DNA of 64,000 bases from a virus (IMGVR_UViG_3300028886_000028:224001-288000); one strand, 5' to 3'; positions 34,459-51,650 are shown, counted from the first letter of the stretch. Program-made: numbers and translations. The notes: generated by a model from the sequence alone, not told the origin.

Positions 34459-34495
34459 ATTTTTTGAAAAACATTAATTTAAAAAAATAAAGATT

Positions 34496-34831: not shown

Positions 34832-34843
34832 TATATAATACAC

Positions 34844-34907: not shown

Positions 34908-34959
34908 TTTTTTTGAATTTATTGTTTTAAATTATAATAATTGTAATTAAAAAAAAAGA

Positions 34960-35982: not shown

Positions 35983-36253
35983 TTATATATAGATATATTT
36001 GGCAGTGTTGATGAAGTACACTGCAAGCCTTATGAATCACGTTTTGGGTAGTAGTTTTTTGTGTTCTTTCATTATCAGAGGTTTTACTTTACCAAGCGTG
36101 GTAAAGGAGTGATTCAAATAAGGCGGTTGCCGATAAACGTAAACGGCTCGTGGCGTGTACCAAACGAGAGAATTGCAAAATTTTCAAGAAGCACGTTTAT
36201 CCTGTTTGCTGCTGCAAATAAAAGGTACTGGGCAAACCTAAATTGCCCAATTC

Positions 36254-36328
36254 GCAGGCGTCGCCTAGTTGATTATGGCACTTGGCTTCCAACCAGGAAT
36301 AACGTGGGTTTGAATCCCATCGCCTGCT
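36254..36328 (+). tRNA. tRNA-Gly(TCC)
   Basis: cttgg-cttccaa-ccagg; U73. Confidence 0.88.
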
Positions 36329-36397
36329 CATAATAAATGTCAGTTCTATTTACATTTTTCGCTCTTTTACTAATATTTATATACAAATAGATGTATT

Positions 36398-37168
36398 ATG
36401 GATATTAGTAAATTAAATGAAATTTTAGAGAAAAGTAAAAGTATGAGTGATGTTGCCAGATGTATTTTTGGCAAAGAAAATTATACTAATCGTGAAAAAT
36501 GCAAAAAAATCATTGAAGACTATGGTATAGACTGGAAAAAATGGTTAGCAGAAAAAAATATTAAGCCAAAAAGATATTGTCTTTATTGTGGTAAAGAAAT
36601 AACAGAAGGTGATAGTAGAAAAAAATTTTGTAACTCTTCTTGTGCAGCCAGCTATAACAATAAAGGTAAAAAACATTCTGATAATACAAAAAAGAAAATT
36701 TCAGAAGTATTACAAAAAAAAAGTGCTTCTTTTGATGGGACTATAAAACCAATAAAGGCAAGGTATAGAAGAAGTAAAGAAAATACCAATTGTTTGTATT
36801 GCGGAAAAGAGCTGAATGGCTATAGATTTTGTGATAATATATGTCGTTCAAAGTATAAAGCAAAACAATACATAGAACGTTGGAAAAAAGGAGAGGAAAC
36901 AGGATTAAGTGGTAAATATGGAATGGCAAGGGCAGTAAGAAATTATATTTTTGAAAGCAAAGAAAATAAATGTGAGTGCTGTGGCAATAACTATATAAAT
37001 CCATATACAGGTTTATCAGTTCTTCAAATACATCACAAGGACGGAGATTGCACGAACAACAAGGAAGAAAATCTTCAATTGCTTTGTCCAACTTGTCATG
37101 CAATGACAGAAAATTTCGGAAGCAGAAATAAAAATGCTACTAGAATAGATAATAGGAAAAGATATTAA
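36398..37168 (+). CDS. free-standing HNH endonuclease with Zn-ribbon repeats
   Basis: CLYCGK..FC repeats; LQIHHKDGD..NN..NLQLLCPTCH. Confidence 0.9.
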   Translation: MDISKLNEILEKSKSMSDVARCIFGKENYTNREKCKKIIEDYGIDWKKWLAEKNIKPKRYCLYCGKEITEGDSRKKFCNSSCAASYNNKGKKHSDNTKKKISEVLQKKSASFDGTIKPIKARYRRSKENTNCLYCGKELNGYRFCDNICRSKYKAKQYIERWKKGEETGLSGKYGMARAVRNYIFESKENKCECCGNNYINPYTGLSVLQIHHKDGDCTNNKEENLQLLCPTCHAMTENFGSRNKNATRIDNRKRY

Positions 37169-37209
37169 ATATCGGGTAGACTCCCTGTTAGTCACAGGAC
37201 CGGCTCTAT

Positions 37210-37282
37210 GCGGATATAGCTCAATTGGTAGAGCGTCTGCTTGCCATGCAGAAGGTTGGGGAATCGTGCTCCCTTATCCGCT
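37210..37282 (+). tRNA. tRNA-Gly(GCC)
   Basis: tctgc-ttgccat-gcaga; atypical T-loop atcgtgc. Confidence 0.85.
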
Positions 37283-37316
37283 CAATGAATTTAATAACTA
37301 ACTAAAAAAATCAAGA

Positions 37317-37640
37317 ATGGTAACAACAGCATTATTTACAGAAGCATTTTGGTACTATGCACCGATTTTGGCTTCTTTAACAGTAACAATTGCAGGAGCA
37401 ATTAATGGAAAATTTAACATCACAAATGGTATGTGGCCTCAGATTGTAGCATGGATTGTAGGCGTGGTGCTAACAGTAGGTGGATGGTTTATCGGTCTTG
37501 TACCACTAGGCGAACCTACTTGGCTTGCTATCGTTTGTTTGTGTGGTGTTGTAGGCCTTAGCAGTAATGGTATTTATGATATTCCATTTATCAAGAATTT
37601 GATAGATAAGATGCTGCCAGACGAAAAGTCTAAGGCTTAA
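37317..37640 (+). CDS. holin-like membrane protein
   Basis: Three TM segments, GLSSNGIYD motif, charged C-terminus. Confidence 0.55.
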   Translation: MVTTALFTEAFWYYAPILASLTVTIAGAINGKFNITNGMWPQIVAWIVGVVLTVGGWFIGLVPLGEPTWLAIVCLCGVVGLSSNGIYDIPFIKNLIDKMLPDEKSKA

Positions 37641-37855
37641 ATTTATACGCCGAACAAAGGGCTACAGTAGGCAAACGTCAAACCAAAGCCCTTGAACCTC
37701 GTAAACGTCTCAACCGCATTATGCAAAGAGAGAGGTAACAGACCATTGGGCAATTCCATAGGAGTGTTGTTAGGACGTTTATTGCACCATCAATATGGTG
37801 CAATTTTTTTGTTTGTATATTTCTTTTTTTTAACTTTTTTTTGTATATTTGTATT

Positions 37856-38074
37856 ATGAAAAAATATGCAGAAAAATGTTGGCGATGTGGAAAGCCATTA
37901 ATATGTCACGGAAGCTTTATGATTAGTGACTGGGAAGGTATAGAAATGGATGAAAATGATGACGCTGTTATAACAGATTATTATTGTCCATATTGTGGTA
38001 TGGAATATTCTATTACAGATACGCCTAAAAATCAAATGAACAATTATCAATATTTTAAAAAAGAGCAAACATGA
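37856..38074 (+). CDS. small Zn-ribbon protein
   Basis: CWRC...CPYC. Confidence 0.6.
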   Translation: MKKYAEKCWRCGKPLICHGSFMISDWEGIEMDENDDAVITDYYCPYCGMEYSITDTPKNQMNNYQYFKKEQT

Positions 38075-38457
38075 AATTTGGAGAAAGTTATGAGATTTTA
38101 ACAAAGGGAGGTTTTGTTGCCAGAAAGATTTGGGAAGGAGTTTTTATTTGGCTTAAACCTTCAGCAATAGTTAAATCAGAATGGTGCAGAGACCCAATTT
38201 TGAAAATGATTGCTGATGCAAATGGTGGAGAAGTGAAAGCTGAAGCTGTTTTGTGCAAGCATAACATTTATAAAAATGAAGTTATGACTGGTTGGATTCC
38301 GCAACAAGATGATTTGGCAGCAGATGATTGGCATGAATGTAAACCAGAAATAGTAAATGGCATATCTGGTAAACTTATTGTTATTGATAGCGCTAATAAA
38401 AATGATGGCTATGTTGGTGATTTGTTTGATGGGGCAGATGTAATTAAAAAACCATAA
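38071..38457 (+). CDS. DUF2829 / Tad2-like anti-defence protein
   Basis: MKFGE..L..G..VARKIW ... GWIPQQDDLAADDW. Confidence 0.7.
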   Translation: MKFGESYEILTKGGFVARKIWEGVFIWLKPSAIVKSEWCRDPILKMIADANGGEVKAEAVLCKHNIYKNEVMTGWIPQQDDLAADDWHECKPEIVNGISGKLIVIDSANKNDGYVGDLFDGADVIKKP

Positions 38458-38614
38458 ATTGTATTTTCATGTATAAAGTGCTATTCATTTATGACATTTA
38501 TGATGTAGATGAAGAACCAGATATTGAACCATATTTTGGAATAATGCCTCAAAAAAGGTCAATATAATTGCGTTTTTATTTACTCCACAAATTAATTTAT
38601 TATATTATATAAAA

Positions 38615-38700
38615 GCACCCGTACCCGAACTGGTATAGGGGCTACACTAAGGATGTAGTGTTCCGAAAGGGCATTGTGGGTTCGAGTCCCACCGGGTGTA
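38615..38700 (+). tRNA. tRNA-Leu(AAG)
   Basis: ctaca-ctaagga-tgtag; long variable arm; A73. Confidence 0.85.
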
Positions 38701-38728
38701 CTAAAAATAATATAGTAATTTTTTTTAT

Positions 38729-39280
38729 ATGTCTGAATTTAAAACAATTGATGAAGATGGGGTTTTATTGAGAAGGTGTTGGGCAATGCCTAATAAAAAC
38801 ACTTTCTCAATAAAGCCGTTTAAAGAACTTATTGAAAAATACAAAGCTGAATTACCTGAAGGGGCTATCATATTAGACCCATTTGCTAATTCAAATAAGC
38901 ATGGCACGATAACAAATGATATAGACCCACAATATGATACAGATTATCATTTAGACGCAAAAGATTTTCTTAAGTTGTTTAGCGACAGCTCAATAGATAT
39001 GATATTGTATGACCCACCATTTTCGCCTACACAAGTTGTTACTTGTTATAAAAAACTAGAAAAAACCGTTGATTGGGAAAGTACATCTGCTTCTTTTTGG
39101 TCTAAACAAAAAGAGGAAATAGGAAGAATTTTAAAACCTGGAGGTATTTGCATAACGTTTGGATGGAATTCTGGTGGAGTAGGTAAAAAATATGGATGCG
39201 AAATAAAGGAAATATTACTTGTAGCACACGGAGGTCAGCATAACGATACTATTGCAGTTGTTGATGAAAAAATAAAATAG
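38729..39280 (+). CDS. small adenine DNA methyltransferase-like protein
   Basis: ILDPFA, YDPPF, RILKPGG. Confidence 0.75.
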   Translation: MSEFKTIDEDGVLLRRCWAMPNKNTFSIKPFKELIEKYKAELPEGAIILDPFANSNKHGTITNDIDPQYDTDYHLDAKDFLKLFSDSSIDMILYDPPFSPTQVVTCYKKLEKTVDWESTSASFWSKQKEEIGRILKPGGICITFGWNSGGVGKKYGCEIKEILLVAHGGQHNDTIAVVDEKIK

Positions 39281-39283
39281 AAT

Positions 39284-40060
39284 ATGGCAATAGAAGTAAA
39301 CAAAATATATAATGAAGATTGTTTTGATACTATGAAACGTATGGAGGACAGGTCTATCAATGTAATATTGACAAGTCCTCCATATAACATGACGAAACGA
39401 AAAGGAGGCTATGCTGACAGTGGAAGGTATGATGTCTATAAAGATTGGAAAACTGAAAAAGAATATTTAGATTTTACTAAAAACTTGTTTAATGAATTTA
39501 ATAGAATCATATCTGATAATGGAGTAGTATTATATAATTTCGGCTACAGTATTGAAAATCCTGCATTACCTTATAAATTAGTAACTGAAATAGTTGAAAA
39601 TACTAACTGGCGTTTAGTTGACACTATATGTTGGAAAAAAAGTAGTGGTTTGCCTTTTCCTGCTAATAAATGTAGATTAAGCAGAACTTGGGAATATGTA
39701 TTTGTTTTTGCGAAAAATGGTATGATAAATGATTTTTTCATTGATAAAGGAATAGCATCAATTAGTGAAAAAACAAATCAAATATATTATAATGTATTTT
39801 ATAACTATATTGAAGCTAGAAACAATGATGAAAAAACAAATAAATTGAATCAAGCAACGTTTAGTAGTGAATTAGTTGTTAAACTTCTTGACTTATATTC
39901 AAGTGATGGCTTTATAATATACGACCCATTTATGGGGACAGGGACAACAGCAATAGGTTGTTTGAAGTCAAAAAAACAATTATATTATATTGGTAGTGAA
40001 ATATCAGAAGAACAGGTAAAATATTCTATAGAAAGGATAAACAAAACTCATTTTGTCTAA
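39284..40060 (+). CDS. N4-C/N6-A DNA methyltransferase (beta class)
   Basis: TSPPY before DPFMGTGTT. Confidence 0.9.
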   Translation: MAIEVNKIYNEDCFDTMKRMEDRSINVILTSPPYNMTKRKGGYADSGRYDVYKDWKTEKEYLDFTKNLFNEFNRIISDNGVVLYNFGYSIENPALPYKLVTEIVENTNWRLVDTICWKKSSGLPFPANKCRLSRTWEYVFVFAKNGMINDFFIDKGIASISEKTNQIYYNVFYNYIEARNNDEKTNKLNQATFSSELVVKLLDLYSSDGFIIYDPFMGTGTTAIGCLKSKKQLYYIGSEISEEQVKYSIERINKTHFV

Positions 40061-40081
40061 TATTTATTAAGAAAAAACATT

Positions 40082-40387
40082 ATGAATATAGACAAAATAA
40101 TAACAGAATCTATTAATAAAGTATTAAAAGAAGTTTGCGAAATAGACAATGCTCCTAATGGTTGGCATAGTTGGGCTGAAACAGATGCTGAAAATGGTAT
40201 GACGCCGGAAGAAGGTAAAGCAATTAGAATGCAGCCTGGTAATGCTGCTCGCGCTAAAGAACCAACACCAGTAACAACTGATTTCAGTAAAAGACCAACT
40301 GTTGAAGAATGGGAAGAAGTATATAAACCTATGGGTATGAAATATGGTGATTATTGTGAAAAAATTTATGGTGTTAAATTACGTTAA
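40082..40387 (+). CDS. hypothetical protein with IITESIN leader
   Basis: 101 aa; AATATTTATT upstream. Confidence 0.65.
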   Translation: MNIDKIITESINKVLKEVCEIDNAPNGWHSWAETDAENGMTPEEGKAIRMQPGNAARAKEPTPVTTDFSKRPTVEEWEEVYKPMGMKYGDYCEKIYGVKLR

Positions 40388-40586
40388 TTGCTTGTTTATT
40401 TGATTTTTTTTTTGTATATTTGCATTGTTAATTGAAAAAATAATAAATATGGTATACGTTTTAACATTTTTTGGCTTTATGACAGTGTTGGGCGCAATTA
40501 TAGCAGTAATTGAGGCAAGAAAAGCCCCATTGGTAAGTGATAAAGAGCCTTTTTTACATGATGATTATGTAGGAAATTAATATAAT

Positions 40587-40661
40587 GCACCTGTAGCTCA
40601 GCCGCATCAGAGCATGGCACTTCTAATGCCAGGGTCCCGGGTTGGAATCCCGGCAGGTGTA
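40587..40661 (+). tRNA. tRNA-Arg(TCT)
   Basis: tggca-cttctaa-tgcca. Confidence 0.88.
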
Positions 40662-40675
40662 CAAATTAAAATACA

Positions 40676-40848
40676 AAGGAACGTACAGCAAGTTTGTTTT
40701 AAATGTAATTTATTTATTTATTCAGACTGAAGCGAGAATAGAGAAGCACAAAATAATAATTGCGAGGCACTATTCTTATTTTTTACCGCAAATAATGAAG
40801 AATTTCATAATTTGCAAAGTCATTCCCGGACTTAAAAGGGCGTTCCTT
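40676..40848 (+). ncRNA. ACAGCAA cassette 6 (long, cargo unclear)
   Basis: aaggaacg/cgttcctt 8 bp; tacagcaa. Confidence 0.7.
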
Positions 40849-40852
40849 AAAT

Positions 40853-40926
40853 GCACCAGTAACTCAGTGGATTAGAGTGTTTGATTACGAATCAAATGGG
40901 CGGGGGTTCGAGTCCCTCCTGGTGTA
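40853..40926 (+). tRNA. tRNA-Arg(ACG)
   Basis: tttga-ttacgaa-tcaaa. Confidence 0.9.
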
Positions 40927-41242
40927 CTAAAAAAAATTAAAAAAAGTTTTGTAAAAAACTATACTTTTCAAAATTAATTAATAATTATAGAAAAATAACT
41001 TCTAAAACTATGGCAAAAAACAGTAAACATAATGTATCATTTATCAATGCTGCGTTTATTTCTAATAAATGCATTGATAATAGTATGTCTACATCAGTCG
41101 TAGATTTTAGTCGAAAAGTTCATAAACAGCATAATTGTATGAGTACTTAGATTGCACTTACACTTCACTATAAATGCCAAGCTGTTGATGAACTCCTAAA
41201 AAAAGTTTTCAACAGCTTTTTTTTGATGTTAAAACAATTGTT

Positions 41243-41539
41243 ATGAAAAATAATTGCAATAGAACTAAGTTGTTTAGGTTTTTAAAAGAACGAAATATAT
41301 TTAAGCCTTTTATTAAGGCATTTTATGACGAATATCAAATTAATACAAGAGTTGAATGGTGTGACACAAGCCATAAATTTAACGGCCATGTACCCGCATC
41401 AATTTATGATTATTGCTATGAAATAAATTGTATTGAAGAAATTATCAATTACGCTTTTGAATGGGAAAAAACAGCACAGGGGTATGATTTTTGGTCAAGG
41501 GTAAATAGAGAGTGGAGGTATTATTGCGATAGCAATTAA
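41243..41539 (+). CDS. hypothetical protein (RFLKE family)
   Basis: LFRFLKERNIF ... FEWEKTAQGYDFW. Confidence 0.6.
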   Translation: MKNNCNRTKLFRFLKERNIFKPFIKAFYDEYQINTRVEWCDTSHKFNGHVPASIYDYCYEINCIEEIINYAFEWEKTAQGYDFWSRVNREWRYYCDSN

Positions 41540-41599
41540 TAAAATTTAACATAAAATATTTTGTTATCAAAATTTTTTTATGTATATTTGCGCAAAAAT

Positions 41600-41673
41600 T
41601 GGGAGTTAGCACAGTTGGTTAGTGCAGCTGACTGTTAATCAGCAGGTCGTGGGTTCGAGTCCCACACTCCCAG
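41600..41673 (+). tRNA. tRNA-Asn(GTT)
   Basis: gctga-ctgttaa-tcagc. Confidence 0.92.
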
Positions 41674-41680
41674 CACAAAT

Positions 41681-42519
41681 GGTGAGGTGGCAGAGTGGTC
41701 GATTGCACCGGTCTTGCGCCTAATTCGAGTGCTATGGCGAAAAATCCCATAGTAGAATCTCCCTAAAACGGTGGAAGTCCTTTGAGACTCCTATGAGAAT
41801 CCTTGTTGATTCAATAATGAGGTGACAATAATAACAAACACTAACCAATAATGTGTAAGGATAATACCGTGCTAAATTGAGAATAATACTAAAATTTATC
41901 ATATATGAGATAACAAATAGAGGAAACTAAATATGGTACTTGCGCAAAATTTTAGTTAGTATTAAAAATGAGTTGTATTCTTATATGGTAGACAGCCATT
42001 AAGTTGAGACGCTTAGTATAAATATGAGCATCAGGCGAGAGTGGGTTCAAACACCACCAACTCATTTATAAATTGAAAAGCATACAGAATATCCAAAAGT
42101 ATGTAAAAAGACGATGGTGCAACATAGTCAATTTTTAATTTATTTCTCATAAATGTGTAGAGAGTATATAGGAGATACCTAAGTTGAAATTAATTTGAGG
42201 GAAAGTACTCAGCGTAGTAATACGTAATACATGAAAATTGTATTTTAAAGGAGGTTTGCCAATTGGGATAGCCCTATCAAATTACTTGCAAGAATTTCAA
42301 TATGGTAAATATGTATTCCAGACTACAACGAACATAGGAGAAATAGCGAGGAGATAGTTCAAGACTAGAGCAGCAGTTCTTGTAAACTGAAGACAGTGGG
42401 TGTAATTCCCACACTTTTCGCCACGACTTTCTTCTAAATTTGGTTATGGCAACATAAAGTAGCAAGGAAAACCGGCGGACGTGACGAGCGTTCCGGGGGT
42501 TCGAATCCCTCCCTCACCG
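41681..42519 (+). tRNA. tRNA-Ser(TGA) split by an intron (exons 41681-41715, 42467-42519)
   Basis: Joining exons gives ccggt-cttgaaa-accgg, ggtgagg/cctcacc acceptor, long variable arm, G73. Confidence 0.9.
41716..42466 (+). mobile_element. group I intron (751 nt, no endonuclease ORF)
   Basis: Exon ends in U with P1 cttg/cgag; P3 atctcc/ggagat; Q-like aataccgtgctaa; R-like gtagagagtata and S-like aatatgtattcc with compensatory P7; ends in G. Confidence 0.85.
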
Positions 42520-42522
42520 CAT

Positions 42523-42873
42523 ATGATAAAACTTGAACATTTTAAAAAAGGCAATTATTATTATATAAATGCTTATAGTGGTGATACTAGAGTTGGAAAA
42601 CTTGGTATTGAATACAGAGGAAGCCAAAATATACATATTAATTATGTTATCACTAGCGTAAGTTACACCGGAAAAGGTATTGCTACTATGATGATTAACA
42701 AGGCTATTGAATTATTTAAAGGATATGATATAAGTCTTTATGTAGTACCAATGCCTAGGAGTGAAGAAAAAATTAAATATAAAACAATAAAAGGCCTTTC
42801 TGAATTTTACAATAAGTTTGGGTTTGTTCGTACTGATGACCCTTGTTTAGTTGAAATGATATTAAAAAGATGA
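42523..42873 (+). CDS. GNAT acetyltransferase
   Basis: YTGKGIAT acetyl-CoA motif, FYNKFGF; ORF-track start lies inside the tRNA, so start moved to 42523. Confidence 0.8.
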   Translation: MIKLEHFKKGNYYYINAYSGDTRVGKLGIEYRGSQNIHINYVITSVSYTGKGIATMMINKAIELFKGYDISLYVVPMPRSEEKIKYKTIKGLSEFYNKFGFVRTDDPCLVEMILKR

Positions 42874-42945
42874 AAATAAAACAGAAAACATATAAACAGA
42901 TGTAAGTCTGCGTCAGTTAAGAGTTATGACGCAGTTATGTAAAAT

Positions 42946-43019
42946 GCGCTCGTAGCTCAGCTGGTAGATGCACAACACTTTTAATGTTGGGGTCCTGGGT
43001 CCGAGTCCCAGCGGGCGCA
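42946..43019 (+). tRNA. tRNA-Lys(TTT)
   Basis: caaca-cttttaa-tgttg. Confidence 0.88.
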
Positions 43020-43218
43020 CTAAAATGTTACTATTATACGACATTTTATAGAAACTTTTAAGGATGTTTAATTTAAAGTATTTGAAAATTATGTTGACAT
43101 TTATTTTCGGTGCAGCAGTAGGCGCAGTCGCTTATAGCTGGTGGACTAAGCGATAAGTCCAAAAACATGGAGAGTAAGGTGGCGCACTCCGCCAATTAAA
43201 ACGTCACAATTATAAAAT

Positions 43219-43293
43219 TCCGTGATGGTGTAGGTGGTTGTTGCTCGTTGGACTGAAAATCCAAAGGCCCTTGTTCAACTCAAGGTCGCGGAA
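43219..43293 (+). tRNA. tRNA-Phe(GAA)
   Basis: ttgga-ctgaaaa-tccaa. Confidence 0.85.
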
Positions 43294-43549
43294 CAAATAA
43301 AAAGTTGAAATTTATCTGTGGAATACAAACACGTTCAATCCAAGCAAGAAGGGGAACGATTTATAGGTATCAATCATAGACAGATAAAAATCTTGCAAGT
43401 ATTTCAGCTTTACTTTTAATGGTATGAGATAAACTAAGGGCTTATGTGAGGTTGTCACGAGCGTAGCATAGGAGGTGCAAGCCCACGTTTCACGAAGCTC
43501 AATGATTGACATCTATTTGTGACGTGGTTGTTTATCAATTGCCATATAT

Positions 43550-43632
43550 GGATGCGTGTAAGGACTCCTCTGGGGAGTGACCGTGTGATTGACATCAGGT
43601 AACAAACATAGGTTCGAATCCTATTGCATCCA
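43550..43632 (+). ncRNA. tRNA-like element (acceptor + T-arm, aberrant D/anticodon arms)
   Basis: ggatgcg/tgcatcc; atagg-ttcgaat-cctat. Confidence 0.55.
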
Positions 43633-43818
43633 CAAATGCTTGATAATGAGTTTGGAGCAGTTAAAAAGGTGTGTGAAGCTCTAAATTAGTAGTTAGGCGG
43701 TATTATGTATGTGCTCTCGAAAGATTGAGCTGATTTAATATCGGTTAATGAACATGAAACAATTTCTCATTTCCGCAAGCATCAATAAAAATTGGGATGA
43801 AGATTAAGTAGTAGACAT

Positions 43819-43897
43819 GCATGGGTATTCAAGCGGCTGAAGCGCCTAGTATTACAAACTAGTACACCATACGTATGTTCGAATCCTATTGCATCCA
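43819..43897 (+). pseudogene. chimeric tRNA-Val(TAC)-like sequence
   Basis: ctagt-attacaa-actag; 3' end identical to 43612-43636; acceptor unpaired. Confidence 0.5.
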
Positions 43898-44047
43898 CAA
43901 AAGGTGTTCGAAAAAACGTAGTTCGAAATGCGTTGAAGTAGATTAAATGTGGAAAGTCGTACCCTTCCGAGCAGACGTGTTTTCCACGCCTCGTTTGGGC
44001 TAAAGTGGGCAGAGATTCACGCCTCCAACACAGCATCTTTTTTATAT

Positions 44048-44127
44048 AGGGTATTAGCTCAGTTGGTTTAGAGCGTCTGACTTACATTCAGAAGGTTTCG
44101 TGGGTTCGATTCCCTCATACCCTACCA
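44048..44127 (+). tRNA. tRNA-Val(TAC)
   Basis: tctga-cttacat-tcaga; encoded CCA. Confidence 0.9.
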
Positions 44128-44249
44128 AGGAAACTAACAGCAAGGTTAAAAATGGCTTGTAACCCGTGGGTCACAGGTTCGAATCCTGTCTTAGGCTTTA
44201 AAAGTCTGGGTAGCTCAGTTGGCAGAGCAACGTTAATAAAATGTTTCCT
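44128..44249 (+). ncRNA. ACAGCAA cassette 7 with circularly permuted tRNA-Thr(TGT)
   Basis: aggaaac/gtttcct; gg-cttgtaa-cccgt, T-arm, acceptor closed by ttaaa, D-arm, acg. Confidence 0.9.
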
Positions 44250-44255
44250 AAAAAT

Positions 44256-44329
44256 GTTGGTGTAGCTTAGTTGGTTAAAGCATTTGACTGATATTCAAAA
44301 GACCGGGGGTCCGAGTCCCTCCATCAACA
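44256..44329 (+). tRNA. tRNA-Ile(GAT)
   Basis: tttga-ctgatat-tcaaa. Confidence 0.88.
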
Positions 44330-44344
44330 CACAATACAATTTTT

Positions 44345-44416
44345 GGGCTGTATAGTGTAAAGGCTAACACGAGACTTTTGCAAAGTCTAATTGCGGTTCG
44401 AGTCCGATACGGTCCA
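44345..44416 (+). tRNA. tRNA-Ala(TGC), 8-bp acceptor variant
   Basis: agact-tttgcaa-agtct; G3:U; gggctgta/tacggtcc. Confidence 0.75.
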
Positions 44417-44423
44417 CTAGACA

Positions 44424-44500
44424 AGGGAACTAACAGCAAGTTATTATTTATGTTAAAACATCAGACTGCAAATTTGAAAACGTTGAACAAATAGTTCCCT
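44424..44500 (+). ncRNA. ACAGCAA cassette 8 with isolated Cys(GCA) anticodon arm
   Basis: agggaacta/tagttccct; tcaga-ctgcaaa-tttga. Confidence 0.82.
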
Positions 44501-44516
44501 AATATTCATATTAAAC

Positions 44517-44924
44517 GGGCCTAAATTGGTATAGATTGGCAGTAGTTTGGTAGAAATCAAGCAGTGGGCATACACTAGAAATAGCAAAAAAAATATAAAC
44601 GGCGAGAATGTAGATTCTCCTGCTTATGCTTACGCAATGGCTGCGTAAGGCATGAGTCGAGAGACTAGGCTCTTAGGAACAGAACATCCTAGTAATTTTT
44701 CTTAGCGTTGTACGTTAAGATGGTGGAACTGATGACTTCTAGTCATCCCCTAGTTTTCCTCGTTTTCACAAAATGAGGTGGCGGTGAGTTAACTTTCCAA
44801 TGTTTTCCTCGTTTTCTCAAAATGAGGTGGTCTCAAAGGCGGTGTCTTCGGACACTTTGGGTAAGCTTGTATAAATTTCTATGGAACACTGAACAAGACG
44901 AGGGTTCAACTCCCTCTAGGTCCA
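44517..44924 (+). ncRNA. ssrA: tmRNA
   Basis: gggccta/taggtcc with G3:U, T-arm; tag ORF 44601-44648 GENVDSPAYAYAMAA*. Confidence 0.92.
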
Positions 44925-45100
44925 CTAAATACTAAAAAAAAACTTATGAAACATTTTAGCGAAGGAAATCAAGAAGAAGAGTATGATTCTATGAAAGAAT
45001 ATGAAACTAACATACCTTCTCATTTTAAAGACGATTAAAAAAGTAACTTAAAATTTCTTTTTTACAATTTTTTTATGTATATTTGCAAAAAATATTGGTT

Positions 45101-45352
45101 ATGGGAAAAATTTTAGATGCAGAATTTAGAAAAGAACTTTATAAAAATCTTGTAGAGGCCGGGTATGAAAAGACAGAGGCTCAAAAGATTGTTGGTAAAA
45201 AGTATTATGGAGAGTTGCATGAAGAAGTAAAGAAGGAAGTTGATGTGTTTTTAAATGCATTAGTAAAAGAGGATTTTAGTGTTGTTTTTGATTGCGATTC
45301 AGTGACAAAGAAAGTAGAAGAACTTAAAAAGTTAAAAGAATTACTTAGTTAA
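45101..45352 (+). CDS. hypothetical protein
   Basis: ORF after early promoter. Confidence 0.6.
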   Translation: MGKILDAEFRKELYKNLVEAGYEKTEAQKIVGKKYYGELHEEVKKEVDVFLNALVKEDFSVVFDCDSVTKKVEELKKLKELLS

Positions 45353-45358
45353 TAATAT

Positions 45359-45431
45359 TGTGGGGTAGAGCAGTTGGTAGCTTGTCAGACTCATAATCTG
45401 GAGGTCGTGGGTTCGAGTCCCACCCCCGCTA
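45359..45431 (+). tRNA. tRNA-Met(CAT), initiator-like
   Basis: 1:72 mismatch, gagcagttggtagct D-arm; lacks the three G:C anticodon-stem pairs. Confidence 0.8.
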
Positions 45432-45444
45432 CTTTATAAATACA

Positions 45445-45573
45445 AGGAAGTTGACAGCAAACGATAAGAAATTTTCCCAAGCCGGAGGTCGTTGGTTCGA
45501 ATCCAACTAGGAATTGTGTTTATCCTATAGCTCAGATGGTTTAGAGCGCCAGCTATTTCATTTAATGCTTCCT
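45445..45573 (+). ncRNA. ACAGCAA cassette 9 with circularly permuted tRNA-like domain (CCC loop)
   Basis: aggaagt/gcttcct; ttcccaa-gccgg, T-arm, tagga/tccta, D-arm, ccagc. Confidence 0.85.
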
Positions 45574-45578
45574 AAAAT

Positions 45579-45655
45579 AGCCTCAGGGGATGCTAGGCGT
45601 GTCCGTCACTCTGTCACAGTGTTCAATCAGGTGGGTTCGAATCCCATTGGGGCTG
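45579..45655 (+). tRNA. tRNA-Asp(GTC), atypical D-arm
   Basis: cact-ctgtcac-agtg; G73. Confidence 0.75.
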
Positions 45656-45682
45656 CGTAGTATAAAACGTTTCCTAAAATAT

Positions 45683-45756
45683 GGTGTACGTGGTTGAGTG
45701 GTTTAGGCGCAAGATTGTGGTTCTTGTCTACGCAGGTTCGAATCCTGTCGTACACC
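45683..45756 (+). tRNA. tRNA-His(GTG)
   Basis: G-1:C73; caaga-ttgtggt-tcttg. Confidence 0.9.
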
Positions 45757-45944
45757 CTAGAATAATTTAATATTTTTAAATAAAATTAGTTATGAAAAGT
45801 TTTTGGTAGATTATCAATCAGTTTTGGTAGCTGAATCGTGTTCGTGGTACTCCTAGAGTTAATTTATTATCATCGAGTGAAAATAAGGGCGATAATAGTC
45901 CTTTTACAACATTAGAAAAATATAATAAATTAATATTAGGAATT

Positions 45945-46259
45945 ATGGAAAAATTACAATTTACAGACAAAGCAACCACAAAAGAACAGTATTTAAAGTT
46001 CAAGGAGTATATTAAGCAAAATTGTCACGGTCACGCTGCTTATGTAGCATACTACATTTTCAAGCATCGTATTGAAGGTGAAAAACGTGATGAATATCTT
46101 GAAGACGAGGTTAGACATCGTTGTTGGAAAGGCCTTTATCATGGTAGAATTCTACTCAGTGGTGGAGACATGACAGAAAACTATGCAATACCACTCTTTA
46201 AGAATAGGGTAATTAGAAAGTATAACGAATTTGCTGACCCAGATGGAAAAGAAAAATAA
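45945..46259 (+). CDS. hypothetical protein
   Basis: 104 aa ORF. Confidence 0.6.
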   Translation: MEKLQFTDKATTKEQYLKFKEYIKQNCHGHAAYVAYYIFKHRIEGEKRDEYLEDEVRHRCWKGLYHGRILLSGGDMTENYAIPLFKNRVIRKYNEFADPDGKEK

Positions 46260-46539
46260 GTTATACGTATTAATTGACAAATCCCTTGATGCTGTATACG
46301 GTTGTGTTCAAGGTGGTCACGCAGTGGCGCAATGGTTACTTGAACATGATTATGGTTGGGAAAACGAGTACTTGATTTATTTGAGTGCTGATGTCTATAA
46401 GTGGAAAAACAAGTTATCTGTTCTTGGTGTCGGTTATACTGAATTTAAAGAACCAGACCTTGACAATAAAACCACATCTTTAGCTGTATTAGGGCACGAT
46501 AAGTTATTTAAGAAATTAAAATTAATCAGTGCTAATTAA
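46243..46539 (+). CDS. peptidyl-tRNA hydrolase type 2-like protein
   Basis: KLYVLID..L...VQGGHA ... EPDLDNKTTSLAV. Confidence 0.65.
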   Translation: MEKKNKLYVLIDKSLDAVYGCVQGGHAVAQWLLEHDYGWENEYLIYLSADVYKWKNKLSVLGVGYTEFKEPDLDNKTTSLAVLGHDKLFKKLKLISAN

Positions 46540-46568
46540 GCGTTACGGCTGTAGAAATACAGCCTATT

Positions 46569-46645
46569 GGCCCTATGGCAGAGTGGTCGATTGCGGTCGC
46601 TTCTAAACCGATTTATCATCGTGGGTTCGAATCCTACTAGGGTCA
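46569..46645 (+). tRNA. amber suppressor tRNA (CTA)
   Basis: gtcgc-ttctaaa-ccgat; ggcccta/tagggtc; canonical T-arm. Confidence 0.75.
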
Positions 46646-46829
46646 CTACGGCTTGGTGTATCCATTGAGATACTGAAATAGGTTAGACAAGCACAAGTCA
46701 CGTAAGAAATGACAGGCAGGCAGTAATGCTGTGCGAGGATTAGTCCCTTGCTCTAATCTCTTGATGGTAATAGAGACCTTTTTAAGTTAGAGGTTAAACT
46801 TATATTTTTTTAAAAAAGTATTAATAATT

Positions 46830-47078
46830 ATGGTAGTACAAGATATTAAGCCTTTAGTGAAAGGCATCGCTCAATTACAATATGTATTAGCCGGAGGTAT
46901 AGCAGTATATAAAATAATTGCTGTAGATGGCACGGAATATCAACTGGAAATAGATGTGAGCAATAAAAATGATGTTGGAGCAAGTGCTTCTTTTAATACA
47001 ACTGAAAAGGCTTTACTTCTAATGAGGTGGATAAGGAAAGCTAATGAAAATGATACTCTTATCAAAATAAAGGGCTAG
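46830..47078 (+). CDS. hypothetical protein
   Basis: 82 aa ORF. Confidence 0.6.
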   Translation: MVVQDIKPLVKGIAQLQYVLAGGIAVYKIIAVDGTEYQLEIDVSNKNDVGASASFNTTEKALLLMRWIRKANENDTLIKIKG

Positions 47079-47152
47079 CAGTAAAAGGTTCATCCTAAAG
47101 CTCTATTCGTAGGAATGCTGAAGGACTGAGTGTTCGAATCACTCCTAGTCCA
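47072..47152 (+). ncRNA. tRNA-like mini-RNA with Ala-type acceptor (G3:U) and no D-arm
   Basis: gggctag/ctagtcc-a; gagtg-ttcgaat-cactc. Confidence 0.65.
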
Positions 47153-47170
47153 CAAATTTAAATAAAAGTT

Positions 47171-47359
47171 ATGGCTATAATAGTTACAAAACATGGAGAT
47201 AGAATGCTTCATGGAAAATGCACAAAATGTGGCTGCGAATTTTTGTATCAATTTACTGATATAGTATATGATTATGATAGAATTAATGCATATGATTCAG
47301 AATTAAGGTGCAAATATGTACGTTGCCCAGAATGTAATGCTGTTATAGGATTAGATTAA
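47171..47359 (+). CDS. small Zn-ribbon protein
   Basis: CTKCGCEF...CPEC. Confidence 0.6.
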   Translation: MAIIVTKHGDRMLHGKCTKCGCEFLYQFTDIVYDYDRINAYDSELRCKYVRCPECNAVIGLD

Positions 47360-47365
47360 ACAAAT

Positions 47366-47698
47366 ATGGGAGAAAAGTACACTTATAGTGGATTTGAAAA
47401 CAGAGAAACTTGCGAACATTTAAGAGCAGGAGAAACATGCAAAGTAACTGGTATAGGAAATAGTATGACACCAGTTCTTCAATCTCACCAACCTGTTATT
47501 TGCGAACCGGTTACTGTTGAAACTGAATTGAAGAAAAAAGACATTGTTCTTTGTAAAGTGAAAAGATATTATTATTTACATTTTATTCATGCAATAAAGA
47601 ATAATGGAGAACAGTTTCTAATAGGCAACAATCATGGTCGCATGAATGGTTGGATAAGCAGAAATCAGGTATATGGTAAAGTTATAGAGATACTTTAA
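47366..47698 (+). CDS. S24/S26 peptidase-like protein
   Basis: GNSMTP, DIVLCKV, LH, IGNNHG. Confidence 0.55.
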   Translation: MGEKYTYSGFENRETCEHLRAGETCKVTGIGNSMTPVLQSHQPVICEPVTVETELKKKDIVLCKVKRYYYLHFIHAIKNNGEQFLIGNNHGRMNGWISRNQVYGKVIEIL

Positions 47699-48430
47699 AA
47701 ATCTCTTTTATACACCCTAGTAGTTTAAATCGTGAAAACTAGATGTATTCTAATGGTGAGTCGAATCATCCTGGGGCACTTTAGTCCTATTATTCCCTGA
47801 GAGTTGCCTAGCGTCACTCAAAGTAGTAGGTTTTGTGAATGGGTAACTGTATGAAATGGCTGTTTGTATCTTATCGTGTAGATGCATGGCACGTCATACA
47901 AACACAATGGAGATAAATCATGCAACTTATCATCCTTGTTCACACAAAGTACCCATTCAATTTTTTTAAAAGTTTGTGATAATTATGGATGGGTTTGATT
48001 ACAAAAATGGAGAACTAGTCTGTAAAAGATGCGGAAGCAGAAATGTATCAGTAAGAGCTGGTATGATGACAGACAGAGCGATATGTAATAGTTGTGGTAA
48101 TGAAGATTACATTTAACAAAAATTAATATTTTTAATTTCTTTTTTATAATTATTTTTTGTATATTTGCGTTGTAATAAGAAAAACATATGGCTTCGCTAT
48201 CAAGAAGTCAAAGGCATAACAGCCTATCGCATTTGTCCATAGCGCTTGTAACTTTGCGAACGGCGGGCTTTTCTCTAGTACAGCCTAAAAACTTGAGGGT
48301 TAGTTGTTTATCCACAAAGCAAGCACGGGTTCGAGGAAATTGGTGGTGCGTCTATAAATCCTCCGAATAACCCACGATAAGGGTGTCGTTTTGTCTGTTG
48401 TACGGCACTAGTAAAACAATAGATAATTAT

Positions 48431-48503
48431 GCTCCGTTAGCTCAGTTGGAAGAGCACTAGATTTGTAATCCTGAGGTCGTGGGTTCAAGTCCCGCACGGA
48501 GCT
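48431..48503 (+). tRNA. tRNA-Thr(TGT), weak anticodon stem
   Basis: ctaga-tttgtaa-tcctg (two mismatches). Confidence 0.75.
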
Positions 48504-48575
48504 CAGAATAAGGGGGAGAGCCTGTAGTTACGGCAGAACAGCATTCGGCTTCTACGCCAACCTCCCCAAATTTTT

Positions 48576-48649
48576 GCTCCATTAGCTCAGCTGTATAGAG
48601 CGTCATCCTCCTAAGATGAATGTCACAGGTTAGAGTCCTGTATGGAGCA
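48576..48649 (+). tRNA. tRNA-Arg(CCT)
   Basis: tcatc-ctcctaa-gatga. Confidence 0.88.
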
Positions 48650-48703
48650 CGGAAATCCCTTCTCAGTTGGGGGATAATAATATCACTGAGTGGCGGCTAA
48701 TTT

Positions 48704-49000
48704 ATGACAAAGAAATATTGGAAAGATTGGCAAAATAGAATTGGAGAAACCAAAAACATATACAAGTTTTGGAATTATTCAGATGGCAAAAAAATGAAAA
48801 GGTTTGGAGGTATATTAAACAACCTTGCAGGCGATAAATTATCTAAAGCAACATTTAATCATACAACAGATACTGTTGATTTGGTTATTGAAAGGTGGCA
48901 TCAAACGTTTTCAAAATCAATTCACATTCAGAATGAATATATAACATTGAATCGTGAAGATATTGCTTGTATAGAATTTAATAAAGAATATAATACATAG
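48704..49000 (+). CDS. hypothetical protein
   Basis: 98 aa ORF. Confidence 0.6.
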   Translation: MTKKYWKDWQNRIGETKNIYKFWNYSDGKKMKRFGGILNNLAGDKLSKATFNHTTDTVDLVIERWHQTFSKSIHIQNEYITLNREDIACIEFNKEYNT

Positions 49001-49117
49001 AAGGACATACTGGGGTAAAATCTCAGAGAAGTTACCGTAGGCAACGAATAATTGCATCCTACATCAAGGCGTTGTTACAGTTGTACGGGATAGTGGAATG
49101 TAAGTATTATATATAAA

Positions 49118-49204
49118 GGAGGGATGGGTGAGTGGCTTAAACCAGCACATTGCTAACGTGCCGGCCCTTAATTGGGCCCGGGGGTTCGAATCCCTCTCCC
49201 TCCG
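49118..49204 (+). tRNA. tRNA-Ser(GCT)
   Basis: gcaca-ttgctaa-cgtgc; long variable arm. Confidence 0.9.
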
Positions 49205-49225
49205 CTTAACTAAATTTAGTTAAAT

Positions 49226-49430
49226 GCTGTGCATCAGTGGTCCAGAGTGGTGCGCGGCTGCTACGCAAGGAAATATTCGAATAATGGTAATGCGTAGAAA
49301 ATCCCGGGCCGATGGATAGGAACGGAGAGCACCTGGTAGAGTGCGAAAGTGCGCGAAGGCGTTTACGGGTAGCTTAATGGTGTCGGTTAAGGCTTACGAT
49401 AGCCTTGTTTCATATTAGGTGATGTACAGC
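49226..49430 (+). ncRNA. unknown GC-rich structured RNA
   Basis: 11-bp closing helix gctgtgcatca/tgatgtacagc; internal hairpins. Confidence 0.55.
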
Positions 49431-49523
49431 CCTTTTATGGAAAAGTTATGAGGGTATATTAACTTAATGTTACGTTATGCCCTCATTTTTTTTATTTTAG
49501 TCTAACTAAAAATTTTATATCAT

Positions 49524-49769
49524 ATGGCGCAAAAGAAATTTTCTGAAATGGATATGATTATGATGGAACTACAGAAAATCGGAAACGATGAATTTATGTT
49601 GGGGTTCCAATATCCAGGGAACACTTTGGAAGAAGTTTTAACTGAAGCAATAAAAAAATTGCAGGATTATCTGGAAAACAATAAAGAAAATAAAGACAAA
49701 GTTTCTCCTTATGGCTACAGAATAAATCTTGAGCTTTTTAAAAAGGGAGAGCCAAAAAATATTTTCTAG
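49524..49769 (+). CDS. hypothetical protein
   Basis: 81 aa ORF. Confidence 0.55.
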   Translation: MAQKKFSEMDMIMMELQKIGNDEFMLGFQYPGNTLEEVLTEAIKKLQDYLENNKENKDKVSPYGYRINLELFKKGEPKNIF

Positions 49770-49818
49770 GTGTATTTTCCTATCATAATTTGATATTTAT
49801 TAAAAATATTCAAATAAC

Positions 49819-50319
49819 ATGATAGGTTCATTACATACAATGAGTTATCTTAAACCTTGCAATGTTTTTTTAAAATTTTTTGCAAGGTTTAAAAGGACTC
49901 AAACAGTTAATATAAAAGAGCAGTATGAAAAATACAATATAAGGGTGTTTGACTTTCATATATACTTTGTTGGAATAAATGGCAAAGCCATTTTTAAATA
50001 CAGTGGTATAAAATACGAAATATCTTCTATGTACAAAATATTCAATTATTTAGAATACGTTGGCAATTCTTATGTTAGAATTGTATTAGAAGATAATGGT
50101 GAGAAAATCACAGAAAACGATAGGCTTTTACTTGAAAAACGTTTTATTGATTATTGTAAGATAATAGAGACTATATATCCCAGAATAAAATTTTTCGGAG
50201 GGTATAGAGAATATGATTCAAACATGTTATATAGATTTAAAAATGACGCTCCTAATGATTTAATCTTTTATAAAAGAGTTGATAAATTAAATAAATTCGC
50301 CGGTGGGGGAGTGGTTTAA
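49819..50319 (+). CDS. PI-PLC X-domain-like protein (degenerate)
   Basis: IGSLHTMSY..TQTVNIKEQYE..IRVFDF resembles the PLC-X N-terminus. Confidence 0.45.
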   Translation: MIGSLHTMSYLKPCNVFLKFFARFKRTQTVNIKEQYEKYNIRVFDFHIYFVGINGKAIFKYSGIKYEISSMYKIFNYLEYVGNSYVRIVLEDNGEKITENDRLLLEKRFIDYCKIIETIYPRIKFFGGYREYDSNMLYRFKNDAPNDLIFYKRVDKLNKFAGGGVV

Positions 50320-50384
50320 CCCAGCAGTCTCCAAAACTGCCGTAGCTTAGGCTACCGCATGTTCGAATCGTGCCCGGCGAGCCA
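50297..50384 (+). tRNA. tRNA with CCA (Trp) anticodon and long variable arm
   Basis: gcagt-ctccaaa-actgc; gtagc/gctac arm; GCCA end. Confidence 0.85.
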
Positions 50385-50389
50385 TTTAC

Positions 50390-50466
50390 GGCGTGATAGC
50401 TCAGTTGGTCAGAGCAACAGACTCATATTCTGTGGGCCGTAAGTTCGAATCTTACTCACGCTACCA
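50390..50466 (+). tRNA. tRNA-Met/Ile2(CAT)
   Basis: acaga-ctcatat-tctgt; ACCA end. Confidence 0.88.
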
Positions 50467-50578
50467 AGGGAACTTACAGCAAGTATTCATCGTGAAGGAA
50501 TGGTCTACTTGAAAGTCTTAAGAGCTTTTGTGCGTAAGCACTTGTGGGTTCGAATCCCACCGAAAATAAAAGTTCCCT
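50467..50578 (+). ncRNA. ACAGCAA cassette 10 with acceptor-less tRNA-Leu(TAA) body
   Basis: agggaactt/aagttccct; aaagt-cttaaga-gcttt, variable arm gtgc/gcac, T-arm. Confidence 0.85.
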
Positions 50579-50728
50579 AATTTCTCCATTTTAATAATTT
50601 TAATATTGCAGTGCGTTTTTTTTTAAAAATGCACCGCAATTTTAGTTTAACTATTATTAACTATTATAATTTTGTTTTTCAATGTTTTTTTTGTATATTA
50701 CATATAATAAAACGAATTTAGTTTAAGT

Positions 50729-51118
50729 ATGACAATAGAAAAATTATTAAAAAGGTTTATGAAAGAAAATGGCATTTATGGAACAGAGTTATCAAAGGAT
50801 GCACTTATTTTTTTATTAAACCACGGCGAAGCAATGATGCCTTTTAATTCTTTTATATGGAGAAATACATTACAAGGCCATAATTACTGGTATGAAAAAG
50901 CCCTAAAGTGGGTTATTTGTTTATACGAAAATTATGAAAATATAAATTTAGCAGAAAAAGAAAAAAAATCTTTGTCTCTTGATGCGTTAATGATAAGTTG
51001 TTATAATTTACTTAAATATTATTGCTTAGAAGAAGAAAAAAAGGAAAATTTAATGAAAATTGATGCATATAATAAAGTTACTGAACTATATCATAAACTT
51101 CACAGCGAATCCCATTAA
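50729..51118 (+). CDS. hypothetical protein (RFxKE family)
   Basis: LLKRFMKENGIY ... FIWRNTLQGHNYW. Confidence 0.6.
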   Translation: MTIEKLLKRFMKENGIYGTELSKDALIFLLNHGEAMMPFNSFIWRNTLQGHNYWYEKALKWVICLYENYENINLAEKEKKSLSLDALMISCYNLLKYYCLEEEKKENLMKIDAYNKVTELYHKLHSESH

Positions 51119-51215
51119 CAATTGATTTTTGTCAAGTATTGGCATAAAAAAACGCATAACACATCGTTTTTTTTCTTTATTATATTATTTTTATGTATAT
51201 TTGCAGCGTGAAAAG

Positions 51216-51650
51216 ATGGAGAAACATATAAAAATTATTACAAGGTTATTTAAAGAAGCAGGTGTATTTCCTAGTAAACAATATCGTCATATCATCAATT
51301 ATATAGAAGAAAAAAAATGTTGCGTTTTTTACGGAAGAGACGACATTAGTTATGGAAAATTAGGTGTTGAATATGAAATTAAATTTTTAAAATTACAATT
51401 TGACATTGTAAAAAAATTAATTGAATATGATTTATTAACAATACCTGAATATAATATTATACTATTTGACACAATAGGTAGATATGACATTAGATTTGCA
51501 AGCGAAGATTATAATAAATGGTACAGAGTTGCAAAAGAAACAAATAAAAAAGAGTTCGTTGATTATTTTTTTAACGTATATGAGGATAAAATTGGTAGCA
51601 TTAAAGAAAGCAAAAAAGTATCTGTAAGGATGGGCTTGCCAAGGGATTAA
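51216..51650 (+). CDS. hypothetical protein
   Basis: ATG after early promoter; ITRLFKEAGVF. Confidence 0.55.
   Translation: MEKHIKIITRLFKEAGVFPSKQYRHIINYIEEKKCCVFYGRDDISYGKLGVEYEIKFLKLQFDIVKKLIEYDLLTIPEYNIILFDTIGRYDIRFASEDYNKWYRVAKETNKKEFVDYFFNVYEDKIGSIKESKKVSVRMGLPRD

Follow-up and report, generated by a model that had tools for sequence, protein, structure and literature searches.

The window analysed here comprises 64,000 nucleotides (nt), bases 224001-288000 of a 401-kb viral record from a rumen jumbo phage. At 32-51 kb of the window lies a transfer RNA (tRNA) island, for which ARAGORN and Rfam gave 25 tRNA calls and one transfer-messenger RNA (tmRNA). The same island holds copies of a small RNA cassette, of which nine were found in the window and ten good ones in the genome. 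The family is laid out as a closing stem of 7-9 base pairs (bp), followed by an unpaired ACAGCAA, around a variable module; no description of this handle RNA family was found in the searchable literature. The present work adds its minimal form, in which the module is an anticodon arm alone, together with the statistics of that form. The analysis concerns cassette 8 and cassette 1, both with a loop of the Cys(GCA) type, whose parts are listed below.

44424-44500, plus strand: cassette 8, a 77-nt small RNA gene of the ACAGCAA-handle family, between tRNA-Ala and the tmRNA; 85.6 bits with the covariance model R1
44424-44432, plus strand: 5' strand of the closing stem (P1) of cassette 8, pairing with 44492-44500; 9 bp in every fold
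44433-44440, plus strand: handle motif ACAGCAAG of cassette 8, single-stranded, invariant in all window copies and all homologues
44461-44477, plus strand: anticodon-arm mimic of cassette 8, TCAGA-CTGCAAA-TTTGA, with a 5-bp stem, the loop at 44466-44472 and GCA at 44468-44470
44492-44500, plus strand: 3' strand of P1 of cassette 8, followed by TAA
32405-32463, plus strand: cassette 1, 59 nt, between a Bacteroidota-type promoter repeat and tRNA-Glu (32470); R1 39.5 bits, E 4e-7
32430-32446, plus strand: arm of cassette 1, weak, with the loop TTGCAAC at 32435-32441

Read from the outside to the inside, cassette 8 consists of the 9-bp P1, ACAGCAAG, an AU-rich linker, two short helices and the apical hairpin, and its 3' end lies 16 nt upstream of the tmRNA. 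The hairpin has the format of an anticodon stem-loop, with 5/5 stem pairs, the 7-nt loop CTGCAAA, U33 and A37. When ACAGCAAG was held single-stranded, this hairpin was the minimum-energy fold, with pair probabilities of 0.70-0.80. Cassette 1 likewise has a closing stem of 9 bp, with ACAGCAA at 32414-32420, and its loop follows the same rule (U33, purine at 37); the loop is closed by a 3-bp core only (GGA/TCT), which gives 4/5 pairs if the stem is extended. The sequence-only reading had placed bare Cys(GCA) anticodon stem-loops at these two sites. Both loops are present and the arm of cassette 8 is complete, but the stem in cassette 1 is weak. Scored as a tRNA (RF00005), cassette 8 reached 15.9 bits against a cut-off of 29, and ARAGORN made no call on it. 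Neither cassette has an acceptor, D or T arm, and neither can decode. A pseudoknot between loop and handle (UUGC with GCAA in cassette 1) was rejected, as it comprises 4 nt only and the other loops do not have it.

The sequence-only reading had also reported that a full tRNA-Cys was missing. This holds for the window, in which neither ARAGORN nor Rfam found tRNA-Cys, but the genome contains one tRNA(GCA) candidate outside it (G000 300639-300731, 93 nt). Its loop, CTGCAAA, is identical to that of cassette 8, and its long variable arm resembles that of class II tRNAs; it may be a tRNA-Cys or a Ser/Leu-type body with a Cys anticodon. The candidate is preceded by a small GC-rich hairpin ending in TAA.

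The window contains 11 occurrences of the handle pattern (stem start plus ACAGCAA), where 0.85 would be expected. Of 94 stretches that matched the exact pattern in a scan of viral contigs, about 30 close with a complementary stem and are clearly homologous, the rest being chance matches in coding DNA; a looser search of the fetched loci brought the number of members in related phages to about 75. The covariance model R1 was seeded with eight cassette-8-like members and annotated only for the closing stem and the apical helix, and is thus biased to this clade. It found 4-7 members in each of five related rumen jumbo-phage records and recovered cassettes 1 and 4, both outside the seed, with E values of 4e-7 and 8e-6. 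In 39 distinct members aligned with R1, 89% of the cells hold standard pairs and 12/14 pairs change on both sides (7/9 in P1 and 5/5 in the apical helix), in an alignment that was fitted to R1 and so leans towards the modelled structure; when the partner column was slid by 1-3 columns as a control, pairing fell to 27-54%. The apical loop has exactly 7 nt in 24 of these 39 members. Cassettes 8 and 1 are members of the family: both have the covarying closing stem and an ACAGCAA lying 0-3 nt from its 5' strand, and the genome that carries them holds a DUF2828/DUF7788 gene. A second covariance model, seeded independently with handle RNAs that lie beside DUF2828 genes in unrelated phages, was abandoned, as MAFFT left the 3' stem strands ragged and no common structure line could be drawn.

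Comparison with known RNA families gave little. At the gathering score and at E up to 10, Rfam aligned cassettes 8, 1, 2 and 4 only with tRNA, below threshold, and a search of 32000-51500 with Rfam 15 (E up to 10) returned tRNA, tmRNA and weak YrlA matches only, with no ribozyme or cis-regulatory match. A ribozyme like that of hepatitis delta virus (theta-type) was rejected after manual folding: the 5' end pairs with the 3' end, which leaves no room for P4/P2 after the 3' strand, and in cassette 1 the next tRNA begins 6 nt downstream. The usual core motifs of the hammerhead, hairpin, twister and pistol ribozymes are likewise absent from the element.

The displayed loops were tabulated in the inserts of 90 distinct short members (up to 100 nt) and compared with 300 dinucleotide shuffles. 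A perfect 5-bp hairpin with a 7-nt loop was present in 33/90 members against 16.8±3.6 in the shuffles, none of which reached 33; this count, like the others from the same set, is inflated by related sequences, as only identical copies had been removed. Loops of 3-6 and 8-10 nt were not enriched among these members. A U at loop position 2 combined with a purine at position 6 was found in 17/90 (3.5±1.8 in shuffles), and the full pattern of a pyrimidine at 32, U33, any triplet and a purine at 37 (Y-U-NNN-R) in 16/90, against 1.8±1.3, with no shuffle of the 300 reaching 16. Such loops are present in 13 of 36 tRNA-island cassettes of the rumen phage clade against 1.0±1.0, whereas among the handle RNAs that unrelated phages carry beside DUF2828 genes the count is 3 of 54 against 0.8, a marginal result that 15 of the 300 shuffles reached. 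Only in the tRNA-island cassettes of the rumen clade is the enrichment strong. Two clean arms were seen among the unrelated phages, one Pro-type and one Asn-type, both in the same phage (L148). The reverse complement was considered as a control for the loop motifs and discarded as invalid, since Y-U-NNN-A gives the same pattern on the other strand, and shuffles were used instead.

The sequence-only reading had proposed tabulating the loops of homologues for an enrichment of anticodon-like 7-nt loops, and had named random loops as the outcome that would speak against it. The enrichment is there and is specific to 7 nt, the displayed hairpins are anticodon-like beyond chance, and the loops of the homologues are not random, as they keep U33 and the purine at 37. 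The triplets displayed are GCA (on eight different stems), GTA, GTC, GTT, TTT, TGA, TGG and TTA, with TGT and GAT in permuted tRNA bodies, and the family as a whole covers the anticodon identities Cys, Tyr, Asp, Asn, Lys, Ser, Pro, Thr, Ile and Leu. GCA is far over-represented relative to the AT-rich background (G 0.15, C 0.13, A 0.40), but it comes from only about three lineages. Position 37 is mostly G in the Pro-type loops and A in the others, as in real tRNAs. The bases A36-A37-A38 of the cassette 8 loop match the context of MiaA substrates, and G36-G37 of the Pro-type loops matches that of TrmD.

Orthologous cassettes were compared for the way in which the triplet changes. The ortholog of cassette 8 at L026:8243-8319 differs at 4/77 positions, and two of these differences turn GCA into TGA; the phage that carries it encodes a protein 79% identical to the Ro60-like protein described below. 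A more distant copy, L040, shows TGG on the same TCAGA/TTTGA stem, with compensatory changes in the closing stem and a compensatory A-U to U-A change in the inner 3-bp helix. Likewise, the stem ATGAA/TTCGT carries GTA in L031 and TTT in L058. The suggestion that the loop is exchangeable on a constant frame is thus borne out, one stem carrying three different triplets, and cassette 2 does combine the inner frame of cassette 8 with another hairpin, which is not anticodon-like. In the lineage of cassette 1 (this phage, the G003 ortholog L181, which stands before tRNA-Glu, and three others), TGCAA is invariant in 5/5 members, the 5' linker and flank are scrambled, and stem pairs change on both sides. 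In the group with permuted tRNA bodies, 6/8 members keep a loop of the form N-A-T with A37. Judged from these alignments, the loop frame is maintained, and the triplet is conserved in some cases and switched in others.

The gene linked to the handle is, in this window, the following.

22263-23882, plus strand: DUF2828/DUF7788 gene, 539 amino acids (aa); Pfam match to DUF7788 (1.4e-20) and weak ones to DUF2828 and VWA

Homologues of the 539-aa protein carry PF11443 and PF25043. A search of the PDB by sequence returned nothing for this protein, and no mention of a function for DUF2828 was found in the searchable literature. Its AlphaFold2 model has a predicted local distance difference test score (pLDDT) of 83, and the 11 best Foldseek matches of the model in the PDB are all Ro60 structures, from frog, human, Deinococcus (Rsr) and the Thermus phage phiLo. 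They extend over the full length, with a template modelling (TM) score of about 0.5 and E values down to 8e-6. The protein is predicted to be Ro60-like and, by analogy with Ro60 and its Y RNAs, is probably the partner that binds the handle.

The linkage between protein and handle was examined in 78 viral loci fetched by the protein alone (24-79% identity), which were searched for a stem of at least 7 bp with ACAGCAA. This gave 105 matches on the strand of the gene against 32 on the opposite strand. Within 600 nt of the gene ends lie 26 matches from 17 loci, often just before the start codon or as short arrays past the stop codon, and the stems of these matches differ completely in sequence. 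Moreover, of the 15 contigs that carry cassettes and are 38 kb or longer, 13 encode a homologue of the 539-aa protein too. In two unrelated phages (L148:6581-7609 and L170:9221-11626), arrays of four or five handle RNAs stand beside the DUF2828 gene; some of these RNAs combine a tetraloop hairpin with a second hairpin whose 7-nt loop is anticodon-like (Pro-type, Asn-type or with the triplet TTA).

The Ro60-like gene has as neighbours, within 20094-25490, genes for IF3 (20094-20621), a sigma-70-type factor (20630-21589) and a tyrosyl-tRNA synthetase (24213-25490), and DnaJ, an AAA ATPase, NAD synthase and TelA are encoded near it. This gene context fits work on RNA and translation. An RtcB RNA ligase gene lies outside the window (G000:C1:316545-317735, 197 bits). 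As far as the accessible text of PMC7790460 goes, RtcB in Salmonella is encoded in one operon with Ro60 and Y RNAs, and the combination of RtcB, a Ro60-like protein and Y-like RNAs echoes this rsr-yrlBA-rtcBA operon, with the parts dispersed in the phage. T4-type RNA ligases were not found by a profile search in which PF09511 was silent in the control genomes too.

The other cassettes of the window are of several kinds.

33283-33353, plus strand: cassette 2, with the inner frame of cassette 8; R1 74 bits; apex with a 4-bp stem and a 9-nt loop
33838-33973, plus strand: sibling cassette with a permuted tRNA-like body
34843-34908, plus strand: cassette 4, a short member with a possible Pro-type arm, loop TTTGGGT; R1 34.2 bits, E 8e-6
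40676-40848, plus strand: sibling cassette with a 150-nt non-tRNA insert; ortholog at L026:13962-14135
44128-44249, plus strand: sibling cassette with a permuted tRNA-like body and a Thr-type loop; weak YrlA match of 34.3 bits against a cut-off of 69
45445-45573, plus strand: sibling cassette whose tRNA body is attached to the handle via the anticodon stem, a YrlA-like topology; YrlA 27.6 bits
50467-50578, plus strand: sibling cassette with a non-permuted tRNA-Leu-like body; R1 31 bits

The pairs of the Pro-type arm of cassette 4 have a probability of 0, that is, the energy model disfavours them. The 3' strand of P1 in this cassette runs into a T-run (34899-34915), and a T-run also ends homologues including L005, L014, L074, L077, L078, L083 and L084, in a manner that resembles an intrinsic terminator; the 3' end of such cassettes may be made by termination. 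The cassettes start just past one tRNA, those at 44128 and 50467 directly on its CCA, and the next tRNA or the tmRNA follows 4-16 nt downstream.

Around the cassettes, the island shows these further features.

32358-32389, 33748-33779, 37822-37853, 40393-40424, 41561-41592 and 45056-45087: copies of a promoter-like box
44345-44417: tRNA-Ala, a few bases before cassette 8
44517-44925: phage-encoded tmRNA, directly after cassette 8; tag GENVDSPAYAYAMAA; Rfam 54.8 bits

The box is a repeat of approximately 32-60 nt that ends in TGTATATTTGCA and fits the Bacteroidota promoter consensus (…TTTG … TAnnTTTG). Such promoter-like boxes mark the starts of the tRNA and cassette transcription units, and one such unit opens with cassette 1. 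The tmRNA stands in one tight array with tRNA-Val, tRNA-Ile and tRNA-Ala. A tRNA with the anticodon CTA (46569-46646), called as Pyl by ARAGORN, is an amber suppressor, which suggests that TAG may be read through in some genes of the phage. For the tRNA-like gene at 34373-34442, ARAGORN gave a 2-nt 'anticodon' (tt) and no assignment, and Rfam a tRNA score of 38.7 bits; this could be one more tRNA look-alike that does not decode.

Taken together with the linkage to the Ro60-like gene, we consider it probable, with moderate confidence, that cassettes 8 and 1 are Y-RNA-like partner RNAs whose variable module is reduced to a tRNA-Cys-type anticodon arm, presented by way of the Ro60-like ring. The RNAs would be structured molecules of about 60-77 nt, cut from polycistronic tRNA transcripts and trimmed to the closing stem. 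Their constant handle consists of the end-joining stem of 7-9 bp and the single-stranded ACAGCAA(G) opposite an A-rich strand, and would most likely dock on the phage Ro60-like ring protein (22263-23882) in the way in which Y RNAs use their stem to dock on Ro60. The apical module varies, being a whole tRNA look-alike in the siblings and a tRNA-Cys-type anticodon arm here, so that the particle would display an anticodon loop that lacks the body of a tRNA. The loop would most likely engage a protein that reads anticodon loops, such as a synthetase, a modification enzyme or an anticodon nuclease of the host, and this protein could plausibly either be held on the ring, the RNA serving as a tether, or be kept from the real tRNA by competition, the RNA serving as a decoy.

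Canonical Y RNAs combine a stem and a conserved bulge for Ro60 with a variable module, which serves as a tRNA mimic or as the tether of an effector such as PNPase (PMC4201824; PMC12135203). Like YrlA (RF02553) and the shorter YrlB (Chen et al. 2014, PMC4201824), the cassettes have an end-joining stem, a conserved unpaired motif and a variable module, with a tRNA mimic in one class. As in known Y RNA systems, including the Thermus phage phiLo with its Ro60 and Yrl1/Yrl2 (PMC12135203), one genome holds several different RNAs; it also encodes a ring protein of the Ro60 fold with a vWA domain, here according to the predicted model, as well as RtcB, and sibling cassettes give weak YrlA matches. Unlike them, the handle motif is ACAGCAA instead of a bulged helix with CGAA, the protein is of the DUF2828/DUF7788 type and has no Pfam TROVE match, and the RNA genes stand in a tRNA island and not beside the protein gene. 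YrlA mimics the acceptor, D and T arms and has no anticodon loop, whereas cassettes 8 and 1 show the opposite, the anticodon arm alone.

A second comparison is with the Class I RNAs of dictyostelids (Kjellin et al. 2021, PMC7919456). As far as the accessible parts of that paper go, these RNAs have 42-65 nt, a short covarying end-joining stem and, directly 3' of its 5' strand, a conserved, mostly unpaired 11-nt motif, the rest being variable. The nearly invariant T, C, C, A and A at motif positions 3, 6, 9, 10 and 11 fit ..T..C..CAA as in CTTACAGCAA; judged by these quoted positions, the motif is probably shared as well as the layout. Unlike the cassettes, the Class I RNAs come from eukaryotic nuclear genes with a promoter element of their own, and the same parts of PMC7919456 describe no tRNA mimicry and no link to a Ro60-like protein.

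Several observations weigh against the Y-RNA-like interpretation. The unconstrained minimum-energy fold of cassette 8 in RNAfold pairs the handle motif and has no anticodon-like hairpin; the hairpin is AU-rich; and the arm of cassette 1 is marginal, with pair probabilities of 0.20-0.28 even when the handle motif is held unpaired. The inflation of the loop counts mentioned above belongs here as well. On the side of the protein, the likeness to Ro60 is that of a predicted fold, at a TM score of about 0.5 and 12% identity, and neither this phage nor any of 10 related records gave a match to Pfam TROVE (PF05731). The RNAs of this phage and its close relatives sit within the tRNA island, where 10-28 kb separate them from the protein gene, and do not adjoin it. 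YrlA (RF02553) did not reach its gathering score anywhere in the set: the two tRNA-like siblings stayed at 34.3 and 27.6 bits against 69, and cassettes 8 and 1 gave no match. The handle, ACAGCAAG opposite an A-rich strand, has no canonical bulged helix or CGAA motif (PMC12135203); since this Ro60-binding motif is absent, we infer that the RNAs work like Y RNAs and do not classify them as such. Finally, many members have no anticodon-like module, among them minimal forms of 43 nt and forms with A-rich loops, so the arm is not needed for the core function of the family.

The last point also bears on the possibility that the function lies in the handle only and that the arm is the last remnant of a captured, decaying tRNA gene. 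The minimal members without any arm, the siblings with full or permuted tRNA bodies, intermediates such as the anticodon arm plus T arm in L071, the degenerate 5' stem strands in cassette 1 and several relatives, and the variation of the triplet between close orthologs would all be expected of such decay. But a changing triplet leaves U33 and the purine at 37 in place, and substitutions in the stems compensate each other. In the lineage of cassette 1 no part of the insert is better conserved than TGCAA, and the 7-nt loop size alone is enriched, which neutral decay would blur. We regard a vestigial arm as unlikely.

It is quite unlikely, in our estimate, that the cassettes are free decoys in the sense of the sequence-only reading, that is, RNAs that soak up a host anticodon nuclease or a tRNA-Cys modification enzyme without the Ro60-like protein, their frame serving only to block exonucleases. 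Isolated anticodon stem-loops are in-vitro substrates of several anticodon-loop enzymes, and the format of the loop, the exchange of the triplet on a constant stem and the preservation of the GCA loop in the cassette 1 lineage agree with a decoy, as do the phage's own tRNA set and RtcB, which would be expected if cleavage of host tRNA were the selective pressure. Phage tRNA genes counter host defences that cleave tRNA, and in T4 the enzymes Pnk/Rnl1 repair tRNA-Lys cut by PrrC; the cassettes resemble these systems as tRNA-island RNAs with anticodon loops in a genome with an RNA ligase (here RtcB). Unlike them, however, cassettes 8 and 1 have no acceptor, D or T arm, whereas the anti-tRNase tRNAs are full, chargeable molecules that replace the cleaved ones. 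The anticodon identities of the family are broad and name no single target, and we know of no tRNA-Cys-specific anticodon nuclease for the presumed Bacteroidota hosts. Nor is the frame a generic clamp: the handle motif adjoins DUF2828 genes in unrelated phages, which favours a protein partner. As the handle family travels with the Ro60-like gene, which the sequence-only reading had not noticed, a Y-RNA-like ribonucleoprotein is a better frame for these RNAs than a free decoy.

A spacer that guides RNase cleavage of the tRNA transcripts or ends transcription, with an incidental hairpin, would suit the way in which the cassettes abut the preceding tRNA (some on its CCA) 4-16 nt before the next tRNA or the tmRNA and the T-run after cassette 4 and many homologues, as in intrinsic terminators, but is very improbable, as the handle adjoins DUF2828 genes and not tRNAs in unrelated phages, no ribozyme or leader family matched in Rfam at E up to 10, and the conservation of a single-stranded motif, the tRNA-like cargo and the anticodon-like loops would be left unexplained.

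Starting from the Y-RNA-like reading, a wider proposal can be put forward tentatively, as a possibility to which we give a low probability. Giant rumen phages might run a programmable bait system, in which a Ro60-like ring and a constant handle are combined with interchangeable tRNA parts, either whole bodies or bare anticodon arms of chosen identity, that capture, inhibit or redirect host proteins which read or cut anticodon loops. Swaps of the triplet on a fixed stem (GCA, TGA, TGG) would then be the means by which the phage retargets its bait as it competes in an arms race against the anticodon nucleases of the host.

Y RNAs are known as mimics of the tRNA body, the reason for which is an open question, and the cassettes show the complementary part, the anticodon arm alone. 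If the arm is vestigial, they document the decay of tRNA genes into scaffolds for small RNAs. Should the RNAs bind the Ro60-like protein, they would offer a simple and mutable system for studying the purpose of the variable module of Y-type RNAs. The Y-RNA-like reading, if true, would assign a function to a large protein family that so far has only the name DUF2828/DUF7788, and would add an RNA-based player to the conflict between phages and bacteria over tRNA.
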